64,000 nucleotides of DNA from a virus (Duplodnaviria > Caudoviricetes), in IMG/VR virus record IMGVR_UViG_3300028549_000249, positions 1 to 64,000 of that record; one strand, written 5' to 3'. The notes beneath the pieces are model-generated. The model was not told where the DNA came from. It worked only from the letters and a program-made list of their open reading frames with translations, and did not search any database. This document shows positions 2,311 to 60,072 of this stretch, in pieces. Every line of letters begins with the position of its first letter. Within the stretch, counting starts at the first letter, position 1. The position numbers were made by a program, and so were the translations under genes.

Positions 2311-2361
2311 CATTTGACCGTCGGTCAAAACCTAGCCTAAGGACATAGAGCCGAAGGTTGA

Positions 2362-2805
2362 TTGCATCTGAGACTTATGAGCGAAGAACTAACAAATGTT
2401 AAGCAGGGGACAGAAATCGTCCTAGTGAAGAACCTCGACCTTGCCGTCTGTCTGGTGAGTGTCGGGGTTCGTCTGCGTAGTGACCCTCCGTATTCCGCAG
2501 TGAAGACGGAGGCTGGTGTGGTATCCGTCACCTACAATTTCCATAGCAGATCGGCGTGTGGCACGTATCTGACGATGGATCTCTGCAAGGCGTTCTCGGA
2601 GGATATGAAATGGATCGCCGCCCACCCTTCGCACCCATTCACGTTCGCCATGGTGGCCGTGAAGAATCTTGAGTCGTTCAAGGAGAGCCTTGCTAGGGCC
2701 GTCCCTTTCGTGTCCTTCCGTGCGTCCGGCGCTGCCGTGCTTTACGTCAAGGAGGGGAGCGAGAAGCACAGACGTTGTGTGGCTAAGGGCATGACTCAAA
2801 TCTAA
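2362..2805 (+). CDS. hypothetical protein
   Basis: Open frame in the tail operon (start may be ATG 2377); no motif recognised. Confidence 0.6.
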   Translation: MHLRLMSEELTNVKQGTEIVLVKNLDLAVCLVSVGVRLRSDPPYSAVKTEAGVVSVTYNFHSRSACGTYLTMDLCKAFSEDMKWIAAHPSHPFTFAMVAVKNLESFKESLARAVPFVSFRASGAAVLYVKEGSEKHRRCVAKGMTQI

Positions 2806-2833
2806 CATTCTTCTAACATAAACGAACACTACT

Positions 2834-3298
2834 ATGGCTACCAAAAGAAAACCAGTTGAACAAGGCACCGGAATCAACCCAGACGACCTCCAAGGGATCA
2901 TGGATGACTCGGTGGTCCCTGAAATCGTAGGGCACAAACCTGAGCTGCTCGGACGCAAGCTGCGACCTGTTACTCTAGCCTCCATCGCTCTCCTGAAGCA
3001 AATCAAGTCCGACCTGATTGCGGGCGTGAACATTGAGACGTCGGAGAATATCATCATCGACTCGTGCGTATTCGTCTTGCTCCACTCCATGCCGCTCGAA
3101 GAAGCCGCAGAGTTGGCGTTCGGCCCTCCCGCCAAGCTCAAACTCGCTGCTCTCCATCTTGCCGACGAAATCAAAGCCACGAACATCTCTGAGTTGACAA
3201 CCACCATCGTTGAGATGCTCCGCGATGCTACGTCCACTCAGGTCAAGGCGTTGCCGAAAAAGGGCGAGTTGCCGGATAATCCACTGGGAAACTTGTAG
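2834..3298 (+). CDS. tail assembly chaperone (lambda G-like)
   Basis: Directly upstream of the tape measure; ends with in-frame slippery heptamer G GGA AAC. Confidence 0.75.
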   Translation: MATKRKPVEQGTGINPDDLQGIMDDSVVPEIVGHKPELLGRKLRPVTLASIALLKQIKSDLIAGVNIETSENIIIDSCVFVLLHSMPLEEAAELAFGPPAKLKLAALHLADEIKATNISELTTTIVEMLRDATSTQVKALPKKGELPDNPLGNL

Positions 3299-3489
3299 GC
3301 CCTCCATGGTTGATCCGCATGGCAGGCATAGTCGCGGAAACCAGCCATGAGACGGGCACCTACGTTCTGAGAGAGATGCCACTGAAAATGGTGTTTGCCT
3401 ATGAACACCTGTTCTACATCAAGAACGGGTATGGCTGCGAAGTTCTATCCTTCAAGCAATCTCTTGATGATTTACTCAAATCACTATAA
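3286..3489 (+). CDS. -1 frameshift extension of the tail chaperone (lambda GT-like)
   Basis: GGGAAAC at 3286-3292; -1 frame reads GKLVGPPWLIRM...YVLREMPLKMVFAYEH...LLKSL* to TAA 3487-3489, ending 9 nt before the tape measure ATG. Confidence 0.8.
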   Translation, partial: GKLVGPPWLIRMAGIVAETSHETGTYVLREMPLKMVFAYEHLFYIKNGYGCEVLSFKQSLDDLLKSL

Positions 3490-3498
3490 GGTCCCGAC

Positions 3499-58895: not shown

Positions 58896-59243
58896 GTGAT
58901 GACCATGAAGGGGGTCAACGAAGCAGCCGAGCGTCACCTTCCATTGAAGATCCTCATTAAGCGGATCGAGGCGATGGTTCCAATTGAGCTGGTAGTTAGT
59001 CCTGCGTTGCTTTTCTTCATTGCCTGCCTTGAGGAGATGGACCGTCCAGGTTCCGCAGTCCTATGGGCCTACACACTGATGCTGCGGGCGTCCGAGGAGT
59101 TGGAGCCATGCGCCATCCATAACTTCGCGCAGTCCCGCTTTCCGATGGGAGTTCCTACCCGTAAGGCCATGGACGCCGCATGGGTCGCGCAGAAGCGCAT
59201 TCCAGCCAAGGGAACATGGAGCCTGATAACGAGCTGGACATGA
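58896..59243 (+). CDS. hypothetical protein
   Basis: Open frame; start uncertain. Confidence 0.45.
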   Translation: MMTMKGVNEAAERHLPLKILIKRIEAMVPIELVVSPALLFFIACLEEMDRPGSAVLWAYTLMLRASEELEPCAIHNFAQSRFPMGVPTRKAMDAAWVAQKRIPAKGTWSLITSWT

Positions 59244-59334
59244 ATGGCACATGGAATCCACTGATTAAAAAGATTCTTTCTAACAGTTGAATTATTTCCT
59301 TGCAAAGGTTTGGGATCTAGGTCAATCTACACGC

Positions 59335-59634
59335 ATGTCCAACCCATCCGCAATCGCCCTCCCCGCCCTGTCCTACACCAGCGAACAGGTAGCTCCAATT
59401 ATGAAGCGCCTCCTCGCTCACATCAACACGATGAACGAGCAGCAACTCTTAGCTCATATTGTTGACGCTAAGGACGCCGTCCGCCGCGCCTTCTCGTTCA
59501 CGATAGAAAATAAATACATGCTAGTCGTTTTTGGCTATGGCATCGTTCTCTATCGTGACGGCCAAGAAATCCATTCATCGAAGACCACGATCACCACACT
59601 CTCCGCAATCCTCCGCAATTCCGCTCGCCGCTAA
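59335..59634 (+). CDS. hypothetical protein
   Basis: ATG 59335 just after the promoter at 59300. Confidence 0.55.
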   Translation: MSNPSAIALPALSYTSEQVAPIMKRLLAHINTMNEQQLLAHIVDAKDAVRRAFSFTIENKYMLVVFGYGIVLYRDGQEIHSSKTTITTLSAILRNSARR

Positions 59635-59659
59635 TATCCAAACCTAACACCACACGACC

Positions 59660-60043
59660 ATGACATCGATCATCATATTCAGCACCGCCTTCCACAAGGG
59701 TGGTGAGCCAATAGCCCAGCGCCACCTAACCTACGACGTTGAGCCTAGGTATGGGGTAGGCGACTTGCTCGACATCATCTACGCATCTGCCAACGGTGCC
59801 ACGATGAAGTATGTTACCCTTGGTAGAAAAGACCCGAAGGCAACATCCGCCTCTGTCGGCGACGTCATCACTCTCCGCAAAGGTGAGGAGATCAAGCACT
59901 ACATCATCGCCCCTGTGGGTTTCAAGGAACTCCCAGCCGAGGTGTTCAGCGCCCTTATGTTCCAGTTCACCAAGGACGACCAAATCGACCCTCGTGGATT
60001 CTGGGGCCGCATCGCACGCCTTCCATTTCACGCCGTCGTTTGA
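59660..60043 (+). CDS. hypothetical protein
   Basis: AC-rich leader; the TGA stop lies inside the palindrome at 60039. Confidence 0.6.
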   Translation: MTSIIIFSTAFHKGGEPIAQRHLTYDVEPRYGVGDLLDIIYASANGATMKYVTLGRKDPKATSASVGDVITLRKGEEIKHYIIAPVGFKELPAEVFSALMFQFTKDDQIDPRGFWGRIARLPFHAVV

Positions 60044-60072
60044 CCGTCGGTCAAATTCAACCAACTACACCC

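Follow-up and report, generated by a model that had tools for sequence, protein, structure and literature searches.

What is the role of a 17-bp palindrome, TTTGACCNNNGGTCAAA (TTTGACC-NNN-GGTCAAA), that recurs throughout the genome of an uncultured phage, both at the ends of genes and within them? The phage is represented by the IMG/VR record IMGVR_UViG_3300028549_000249, an 87,985-bp sequence (~88 kb) with 255-bp direct terminal repeats, and the stretch analysed here in detail (the window) comprises its first 64 kb, positions 1 to 64,000. The genome has a G+C content of 54% and carries essentially all of its genes on the + strand. A preliminary description of the window had reported 17 copies of the palindrome and suggested that they were operators of a dimeric phage regulator, parS-like loading sites, DNA hairpin signals or sites of module-shuffling recombination. 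Its factual statements on the palindromes were all borne out; of its interpretations, the operator is the best supported, a parS site read by three ParB-like proteins is not supported in the form proposed, and a hairpin signal is unlikely. Judging from the sequences of this phage and its relatives, we consider the chances about even that the palindromes are dispersed operators of one phage-encoded dimeric DNA-binding protein, located at the borders of transcription units. This is the best-supported reading, owing to the syntenic redesign of the palindromes in related phages, the uncompensated variants found among the copies and the distance of 6–12 nt that separates palindromes from promoters in the relatives.

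Number and placement of the palindromes

The window contains 11 exact matches to the palindrome, as compared with 0.00 expected from dinucleotide-preserving shuffles, and 17 matches with up to two mismatches (0.14 expected), whose coordinates are identical to those reported previously (Table 1). In the entire genome there are 18 exact copies, and the number rises to 24 when up to two mismatches are allowed. Seven copies in the window (2313, 10127, 13481, 20673, 34600, 42422 and 60039) are letter-perfect and have GTC in the centre; this intact 17-mer is written here as TTTGACCGTCGGTCAAA, as opposed to the version with a GAC centre. The centre triplet is GTC in 20 of the 24 copies, ATC in two and GAT in two, and the absence of GAC from the + strand, already seen in the window, extends to the whole genome (0 of 24). 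The real unit is an 8-1-8 palindrome, TTTGACCG-T-CGGTCAAA.

Although ORFs (open reading frames) cover ~88% of the genome, 18 of the 24 copies lie outside of them (P = 2e-12). A stop codon is touched or contained by 11 copies, namely the six for which this had been noticed before (13481, 23659, 31445, 49474, 55576 and 60039) and five more (2313, 20673, 64595, 70325 and 84095); copies abutting stop codons make up 38% of the total versus 5.5% at random. Five copies in the window are indeed within coding sequences (26416, 27067, 29250, 41027 and 46808), and the two with GAT centres, at 27067 and 29250, both encode the peptide LTDGQI. At the latter site, which is in the polA gene, the closest PolA homologues read LTVGQ or LTIGQ instead of LTDGQ. 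Since these are the translations of TTG ACC GTC/ATC GGT CAA, the closest homologues probably carry this same palindrome at that place.

The copies are spaced with some regularity: the coefficient of variation (CV) of the gaps between them is 0.47, as against 0.94 for random placement (P ~1e-4), and the regularity also holds when random gene boundaries are used for comparison. The six intragenic copies split gaps that would otherwise span 7–10 kb, and the array continues through the structural genes, where conserved promoters (see below) are absent.

Arrays of palindromes in related phages

The nearest cultured relative is the Aeromonas phage HJ05, whose PolA is 46% identical and which has only the replication module in common with this phage. 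It carries ~25 copies of a palindrome of its own, TTTG[C/A]AAC-YR-GTTGCAAA, which are also regularly spaced (CV 0.36–0.43). A single-protein PolA search of IMG/VR found no relative, but an alignment-based search for PolA homologues succeeded and gathered 80 IMG/VR loci. The closest PolA relatives (P0002–P0004) have identities of 66–69%; megablast comparison of the window and of loci L151 and L122 with cultured phages gave nothing useful. At least 34 of the 80 PolA-linked loci have their own palindrome in at least four exact copies within ~20 kb, and degenerate palindromes were found in several loci that first seemed empty. The motifs of the relatives include TGCAAC-NN-GTTGCA, TGCAAT-TA-ATTGCA, TGAAAT-CG-ATTTCA and TTGAAAA-N(N)-TTTTCAA as well as TTGCAC-N3-GTGCAA, TTGAAC-N3-GTTCAA and CGCACC-N-GGTGCG. 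Among the whole genomes, Rhizobium phage L338C has 54 copies and the genomes designated G002, G003 and G004 have 62, 45 and 29, respectively, whereas the reversed-pattern control gave 0. Regular spacing was seen in five of six whole genomes (CV 0.36–0.65, P ≤4e-4); in G002, the sites do not cover the genome evenly but are densely clustered in the early region.

The sites occupy syntenic positions: after polA, after dnaB, in or after the gene for an O-like replication protein, and after ruvC before the homologue of gene 42553–43647. The post-PolA position (31445 in this phage) is syntenic across the clade and that of the copy at 42422 in most relatives, and the gene order around the sites is colinear in the nearest relatives. 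The sequence of the palindrome is kept within a genome, whereas between genomes its design is kept and its sequence swapped at syntenic positions, the hallmark of a recognising protein whose specificity has drifted. The array is an inherited trait of a large clade of 70–110 kb phages, mostly uncultured, with a common replication module, which includes cultured members that grow on Aeromonas, Rhizobium and Pseudomonas. Full-text literature searches for HJ05, L338C and the palindrome strings returned no account of the arrays of this clade. One locus, L083, had been considered as a natural loss of both the palindromes and the gene at 37552, but was rejected because two degenerate sites remain in it. 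Two genomes of the TGCAATTAATTGCA group, G005 and G006 (loci L151 and L155), are classed as proviruses inside bacterial genomes, so that part of the wider group may be temperate.

The joint change of the whole set of sites between lineages would also fit homogenisation, as could be expected if a phage nuclease or recombinase acted on the palindromes in recombination, gene conversion or nicking and thereby created module boundaries or strand-specific interruptions. The single orientation of the centre base (see below) fits copying in direct orientation, and recombination between the similar repeats of Cluster O mycobacteriophages is on record (PMC4351075). This genome has genes for a RecA-like protein, a ligase, resolvases, an exonuclease and an HNH/EndoVII-like protein; neither a tyrosine nor a serine recombinase (integrase) was found in it. 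We nevertheless think this explanation quite improbable, given that the site positions are syntenic over deep divergence, that the nearest relatives are colinear and that it leaves the phasing of promoters in the relatives unexplained. In the metagenome contigs that carry this DNA, which come from microbial mats, only assembly breaks are visible at the repeats; the sequencing runs listed for it include none of RNA.

Occurrence of the 17-mer elsewhere

In 596 Gb of prokaryote genomes (185,579 species), the exact 17-mer is found in 72 stretches, as compared with ~70 expected by chance; two of these have two copies, none has more, and there is enrichment in no genome. An abundant host repeat of the REP (repetitive extragenic palindrome) type, which the preliminary description had raised as a possible explanation, is ruled out by these chance-level numbers. 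Three other contigs in IMG/VR have the exact 17-mer, in one copy each, and its metagenome matches, among the matches listed, are mostly single chance occurrences.

In four of the five bacterial contexts examined, the identical 17-mer occurs as pairs, 23–44 bp apart, beside genes of the TetR family; from this arrangement, it is a TetR-type operator in those bacteria. As no TetR_N domain was found among the proteins of this phage, the palindromes could be thought of as the sites of a host transcription factor, for example a TetR-family repressor, which the phage exploits. This would be hard to reconcile with the fact that, irrespective of the host (Aeromonas, Rhizobium or Pseudomonas), each phage of the clade carries a variant of its own at syntenic places, or with the lack of enrichment in any of the prokaryote species, and for any 7-3-7 palindrome there is probably a TetR protein somewhere that uses it as its operator. 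We therefore rate it as a very remote prospect; the TetR-adjacent pairs show merely that the 17-mer suits a helix-turn-helix dimer as an operator.

The TetR-adjacent pairs are on the unrelated metagenome contigs L162, L169, L175, L199 and L219. Two further contigs, L203 and L218, have two to three exact 17-mers within 330 bp, each flanked by GGGGCTTAAAAGCCCC hairpins, an arrangement that is a different repeated element of another organism. A phage protein that the metagenome scan for the 17-mer had linked to the motif (L248) turned out to be a metallophosphoesterase, hence no DNA-binding protein.

Promoters, stop codons and terminators

A conserved promoter cassette is found in ~19–22 copies. 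It occurs on the + strand only, and its copies cluster in the region from 21 to 84 kb (gap CV 1.19), unlike the regularly spaced palindromes. Its ATG start codon is only a few bases past the -10 box, so that the messages transcribed from it are probably leaderless; L338C has the homologous promoter TTGACAAAGG..TAGATT. Six palindromes of this phage are 16–28 nt upstream of the conserved promoter. The proximity of palindromes to -35 boxes, which had been noticed for several copies, was confirmed at 23659, 31445, 42422 and 49474 (16–28 nt), at 13481 (~20 nt) and at 52018 (5 nt), and the copy at 84095, with TTGCCT-17-TAGTTT 7 nt downstream, keeps the 7-nt arrangement. Palindromes 10127 and 64595 are followed, after 11–12 nt, by the same TAGATTGC (10144–10165 and genome 64612–64635). 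To judge from this likeness, such sites may represent a second class of promoters, in which the palindrome replaces the -35 box.

In L338C, G002, G003 and HJ05, the palindromes that precede a sigma-70-type promoter are usually 6–12 nt away from it. In G002, ~17 early-gene cassettes consist of a stop codon, the palindrome, 6–9 nt, CTTGCA, 17 nt and TAGAGT, and in L338C a strict promoter-like match is found 7–12 nt downstream of 14 of the 54 sites. In the six genomes taken together there are 27 strict promoter-like matches downstream of palindromes and one on the mirrored strand, under a rule that undercounts promoters whose -10 box lacks the terminal T. Members of this phage's own sub-clade (L082, L092 and L095) have an AT-rich insertion and palindrome-promoter distances of 14–28 nt, and in L100 the palindrome is located in the spacer between the -35 and -10 boxes. 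Of the sites, 21–47% have the stop codon of an ORF of at least 80 codons within a few bases, versus 5–10% at random.

The excess of copies that abut stop codons, the strand-biased centre base and the location of all genes on a single strand would be compatible with an RNA-level signal, a hairpin at message 3' ends with a role in termination, stabilisation or the direction of processing, and the canonical copy of this phage has a predicted RNA folding energy of -7.9 kcal/mol. In variant copies, however, the energy drops to -3.0 and -2.0 kcal/mol. In HJ05 it is -6.3 kcal/mol for the canonical palindrome and -0.2 kcal/mol in nine copies, and the palindromes of G002 and G003, which are AT-rich, reach only -4.5 and -3.7 kcal/mol, respectively. 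Variants of the palindrome are never compensated on the opposite arm, either in this phage or in HJ05. In contrast to an intrinsic terminator, the palindrome has no U tract, as U residues precede its stem and A residues follow it; no Rfam family was found in the window. Canonical terminators are found immediately beside palindromes in HJ05 and G002, and in this phage intrinsic terminators without a palindrome are located at 43668–43699 and 57498–57530. These observations make a role of the palindrome as an RNA hairpin, or the hairpin signal suggested previously, very unlikely. With pairing not conserved and terminators separate, the element appears to be read as duplex DNA, as an operator for a dimer. 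The two terminators just mentioned are the sole convincing ones between 20 and 60 kb, and the stem of the second bears a TTTGACC half-site.

Strand bias of the centre base and the replication genes

On the coding strand, the centre base is T in 22 and A in two of the 24 copies (binomial P = 3.6e-5). The bias is moderate in HJ05 (13:3, P = 0.02) and not significant in G004 (19:10) and G003 (22:12), and both orientations of the centre are present in L338C and L100. Thus, the biased orientation proposed in the preliminary description is real in this phage but is not a general property of the family, and a bias that is weak or absent in relatives indicates no general functional requirement. Its cause may be that the copies were recently homogenised in direct orientation, or that in this lineage the centre is read in an additional way.

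Another possibility is that the palindromes are replication signals, either sites for the O-like initiator, providing many origins or places of helicase loading, or strand-specific signals for priming on the lagging-strand template. The ori of phage lambda is located inside gene O, and in all five genomes that have the O-like gene, as well as at several further loci, a palindrome is found inside this gene. The arrays travel with the replication module, their spacing is regular, the centre base is strand-biased in this phage, and the centre triplets, 5'-GTC here and CTG in HJ05, match primase recognition triplets (of T7 gp4 and Escherichia coli DnaG). On the other hand, the sites in the O-like genes are at non-homologous positions (a conservative block-shift null gives only ~0.04, a rough estimate), there is one site per gene and never an iteron array as in a lambda-type origin, and G002 has arrays but no O-like gene detectable by BLAST. 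As strand bias is weak or absent in relatives and the hairpins are weak or destroyed in many copies, we consider a replication signal unlikely. In one region of G002 (81500–82700, locus L282), 7–8 palindromes are interspersed with AACATGTTAA-type repeats over 1.1 kb, a cluster that may serve that phage as an origin of replication or as a regulatory hub.

Candidate reader proteins

The leading candidates for the protein that would read the palindromes are the products of genes 42553–43647 and 37552–38088 (Table 1). The former belongs to the eight proteins that are common to all six whole genomes and is present in 31 of 32 genomes of the clade. In five of the six genomes its gene is preceded, at a distance of 9–145 nt, by a palindrome, and one is also found upstream in SM1, G015 and G017. 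This upstream palindrome predicted the motif of the array in SM1, G015, G017, G026 and G027 but failed to do so in G019, G025, G031, G033, G013 and G021. The C-terminal domain of the protein, which is helical and well modelled, is predicted to form an intertwined homodimer with an ipSAE of 0.72 (0.00 for the best of three controls), in runs with contact agreement of at least 91% and partner pLDDT of at least 82. Of 30 proteins solved as pairs, 20 attain the ipSAE mark, as does one of 23 solved as single chains; these counts are only a rough guide here because a custom alignment was used. The linker that precedes this domain, rich in K, A, P and E, resembles histone H1. The domain itself was matched to the DNA-binding domain of ParB/Spo0J with Z 8.0 and a root-mean-square deviation (rmsd) of 11.8, and with Z 7.1 and rmsd 3.4 over 105 residues of 1vz0_A, which is below the level at which the tool is reliable for helical domains. 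Pfam, profile searches of PDB sequences, the ESM Atlas and the homologue search provided no name for the protein, and in PHROGs its function is listed as unknown.

The protein encoded at 37552–38088 has weak fold matches to the MerR family, Xis and RacA (E 0.09–0.3), that to RacA having a Foldseek probability of 0.69 and an E value of 0.18. In 39 loci its gene has the same syntenic position, between those for the helicase and the RecA-like protein. Comparison of its recognition helix with the half-sites gave no clear signal of co-variation beyond relatedness.

As regards a parS-like site, the three proteins invoked in its support (55605–56276, 56295–56858 and ~56887–57480) match only the N-terminal ParB_N domain of Pfam, with 22–24 bits versus a curated cut-off of 26.3, so that this proposal is not supported in its present form, and from their sequences the three do not appear to be the obvious readers. 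The ORF 56587–57480 is over-extended at its 5' end, with the true start probably near 56887. It is possible that a working mode like that of ParB or KorB is realised through another protein.

Table 1. Palindromes in the window, candidate reader genes and promoter cassettes (positions in the window unless indicated otherwise).
Feature	Position	Strand	Description
Palindrome	2313..2329	+	Exact, GTC centre; begins 2 nt past the stop of ORF 1942-2310
Palindrome	10127..10143	+	Exact, GTC centre; intergenic, between 8603-10030 and 10263-11522; TAGATTGC 11 nt downstream
Palindrome	13481..13497	+	Exact, GTC centre; contains TGA stop of ORF 12184-13485; TTGACT-17-TATCGT ~20 nt downstream
Palindrome	20673..20689	+	Exact, GTC centre; 7 nt past the stop of ORF 20111-20665
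Palindrome	23659..23675	+	1 mismatch (G12T); adjoins TAA stop; conserved promoter 21 nt downstream
Palindrome	26416..26432	+	Degenerate, 2 mismatches; within O-like replication initiator gene 25210-26610
Palindrome	27067..27083	+	Exact arms, GAT centre (reverse orientation); within ORF 26552-27154; encodes LTDGQI
Palindrome	29250..29266	+	Exact arms, GAT centre; within PolA; encodes LTDGQI
Palindrome	31445..31461	+	1 mismatch (C6A); 1 nt past PolA stop; conserved promoter 26 nt downstream
Palindrome	34600..34616	+	Exact, GTC centre; between primase gene and ORF 34683-35648; downstream of promoter at 34540
Palindrome	41027..41043	+	1 mismatch (A5T); within exonuclease gene 40600-41583
Palindrome	42422..42438	+	Exact, GTC centre; 16 nt upstream of promoter of gene 42553-43647
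Palindrome	46808..46824	+	1 mismatch (G12T); within ORF 46302-47063
Palindrome	49474..49490	+	Exact arms, ATC centre; adjoins TGA stop; conserved promoter 24 nt downstream
Palindrome	52018..52034	+	Exact arms, ATC centre; intergenic; TTGACC 5 nt downstream; left edge of modification gene cluster
Palindrome	55576..55592	+	1 mismatch (C6A); contains TGA stop of PAPS-reductase-like gene 54384-55580
Palindrome	60039..60055	+	Exact, GTC centre; contains TGA stop of ORF 59660-60043
Candidate reader 1	42553..43647	+	SH3/Tudor-like N-terminal domain, K/A/P/E-rich disordered linker, helical C-terminal domain (predicted homodimer)
Candidate reader 2	37552..38088	+	MerR/Xis/RacA-like winged helix (model pLDDT 93)
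Candidate reader 3	25210..26610	+	O-like replication initiator; gene contains one palindrome in 5 of 5 genomes
Promoter cassettes	21277-59295, continuing to genome 83208	+	Consensus TCTAACAGTTGAAAATAATCCTTGCAAAGGTTTCGG..TAG..CATCCTAC..ATGTCCAATCC

How the proposed operators might work

In the operator model, one sequence-specific dimer would dock on the double-stranded palindromes, whose two inverted half-sites are about one helical turn apart. Each member of the clade keeps 25–60 copies of a palindrome of its own in comparable places, typically the border of a transcription unit, where a stop codon or terminator comes immediately before the palindrome and a sigma-70-type promoter lies a few bases downstream. 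The inherited design and the recurrence of the same kinds of place throughout the clade suggest that the protein and its sites have co-evolved. When bound just upstream of promoters or at the ends of units, the dimer may modulate the host RNA polymerase, presumably by silencing units or insulating them against read-through, by analogy with KorB at the proximal and distal OB sites of plasmid RK2. The regular spacing would give the protein a reach over the whole genome.

Several observations speak against this model. Just about one-third of the copies in this phage are near a recognisable promoter, 13 of the 19 best matches to the conserved promoter have no palindrome, and the distance to the -35 box is unphased here (16–28 nt). 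A symmetric dimer on duplex DNA does not account for the 22:2 bias of the centre base. No candidate reader correlates cleanly with the arrays: the protein encoded at 42553–43647, which has no Pfam match and whose resemblance to ParB is below the reliability level given above, is also found in clade genomes without a clear array or an upstream site, whereas the family of the protein encoded at 37552–38088 is absent, by hidden Markov model search, from G002 and G005, both of which have dense arrays, and its recognition helix differs among genomes with an identical half-site. Finally, the regular spacing and the intragenic copies fit a genome-wide physical role at least equally well, so that a role in genome organisation stays the main rival of the operator model.

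According to this alternative, the palindromes would be nucleation or loading sites for a DNA-organising protein, similar to parS for ParB, NBS for Noc or ram for RacA, that coats, compacts, anchors or shields the genome, with any effect on transcription being secondary. Besides the even spacing in five of six genomes, the intragenic copies that break the 7–10 kb gaps and the course of the array through structural genes that have no conserved promoters, it could draw on the histone H1-like linker and the weak ParB/Spo0J match (Z 7.1, rmsd 3.4) of the 42553–43647 protein and on the weak match of the 37552–38088 protein to RacA. However, no protein was found that joins the N-terminal CTPase domain of ParB to a helix-turn-helix domain, and the ParB_N matches are below threshold. 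The fixed distance of 6–12 nt between many of the relatives' sites and promoters points to transcription, and the sites of G002 are densely clustered in the early region. On balance, we regard this alternative as rather unlikely.

The two ideas could be combined. In such a model, a dimer of a kind not described before, the 42553–43647 protein with its SH3-like domain, H1-like linker and domain resembling the ParB DNA-binding domain, would load at the 25–60 palindromes, spread from them and silence, insulate or shield the genome, and the protein and its sites would switch specificity together. We put this version forward only tentatively, as a rather unlikely proposition.

Comparison with known systems

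The closest parallel to the operator model is KorB of the IncP-1 plasmid RK2, with its operator OB. In both cases, one palindromic operator (13–16 bp in systems of the ParB/KorB type, 17 bp with 24 copies in this phage) is dispersed over a mobile genome, the style of the site is similar, with T-rich outer and GC-rich inner bases, and the reader is a dimer (in the phage, a predicted candidate). RK2 has roughly 12 OB sites, whereas these phages have 24–62. OB sites are located either 4–10 bp or 45 to >1,000 bp upstream of promoters (PMC11790492). A similar combination of promoter-proximal and distal sites is seen here, with 6–12 nt in the relatives and 5–28 nt in this phage, whose other copies are distant from promoters. 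The differences are that KorB is a full CTPase clamp of the ParB family that acts together with KorA, whereas no protein with a ParB N-terminal domain plus helix-turn-helix was found in this phage and the 42553–43647 protein has no ParB_N domain, and that the element here is a virulent-looking phage, not a plasmid.

Cluster O mycobacteriophages have a 17-bp repeat, 5'-TGTTCGGNNNCCGAACA, in >30 copies over the whole genome, both intergenic and intragenic; it is mostly away from promoters, absent from the host and of unknown function, and the authors of the study proposed a dimeric regulator (PMC4351075). The palindrome studied here is like it in having 7-bp inverted arms, a 3-bp spacer and tens of copies in intergenic and coding regions, and in being absent from host genomes. 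This likeness is one of kind and not of homology; neither the sequence nor the lineage of the phages is related. The intergenic sites of Corndog are clustered in one operon and showed no meaningful orientation (PMC4351075), whereas the array described here is regularly spaced, has a strand-biased centre and is a clade-wide trait with changing half-sites.

Stoperators of the L5 phage are oriented with transcription. In Cluster A phages, they are found as tens of dispersed sites, often at stop codons in short intergenic gaps, and a single phage protein (L5 gp71, Bxb1 gp69) reads them and acts on RNA polymerase (PMC9283540). An orientation is also found here, in the centre T of 22 of 24 copies, but it is weaker or absent in relatives and resides in a single base of an 8-1-8 palindrome, whereas stoperators are 13 bp long, lack symmetry and are recognised by a monomeric immunity repressor in temperate phages; this phage has no integrase.

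The ram site of RacA is a 14-bp inverted repeat, TGACGCCGGCGTCA, which the core of the palindrome, TGACCGTCGGTCA, resembles. RacA of Bacillus subtilis (PDB 5i44) uses a MerR-like winged helix to read ~25 dispersed inverted repeats, and the 37552–38088 protein is a weak match to it (E 0.18). RacA, however, anchors the bacterial chromosome in sporulation, and the 37552–38088 family is missing from some of the relatives that have arrays.

Dispersed networks based on a single operator are known for few plasmids and temperate phages, such as KorB-OB and the stoperators, and also C1 of phage P1 and CIR of phiC31, and the similar repeat of the Cluster O phages has had no known function since 2015. 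The array can now be seen as a stable inherited feature of a large clade, with syntenic sites, regular spacing and wholesale replacement of its sequence, which raises the question of how a regulator and dozens of its sites shift specificity together. The existence of cultured members makes the function of the array testable in the laboratory. The arrays also give a simple signature for the grouping of uncultured phages and offer a set of natural orthogonal pairs of operator and reader.

Neighbouring genes

The gene at 22930–23658, immediately before the palindrome at 23659, ends in the basic tail ...VRKRRRVIE (23617–23658). The cluster at 52075–57480 encodes a DNA methylase-like protein, a PAPS-reductase/DUF3440 (IbrA-like) protein and the three consecutive proteins with ParB N-terminal domains. 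As described previously, palindromes 52018 and 55576 bracket modification genes in this cluster, which is closed by the strong terminator at 57498–57530.

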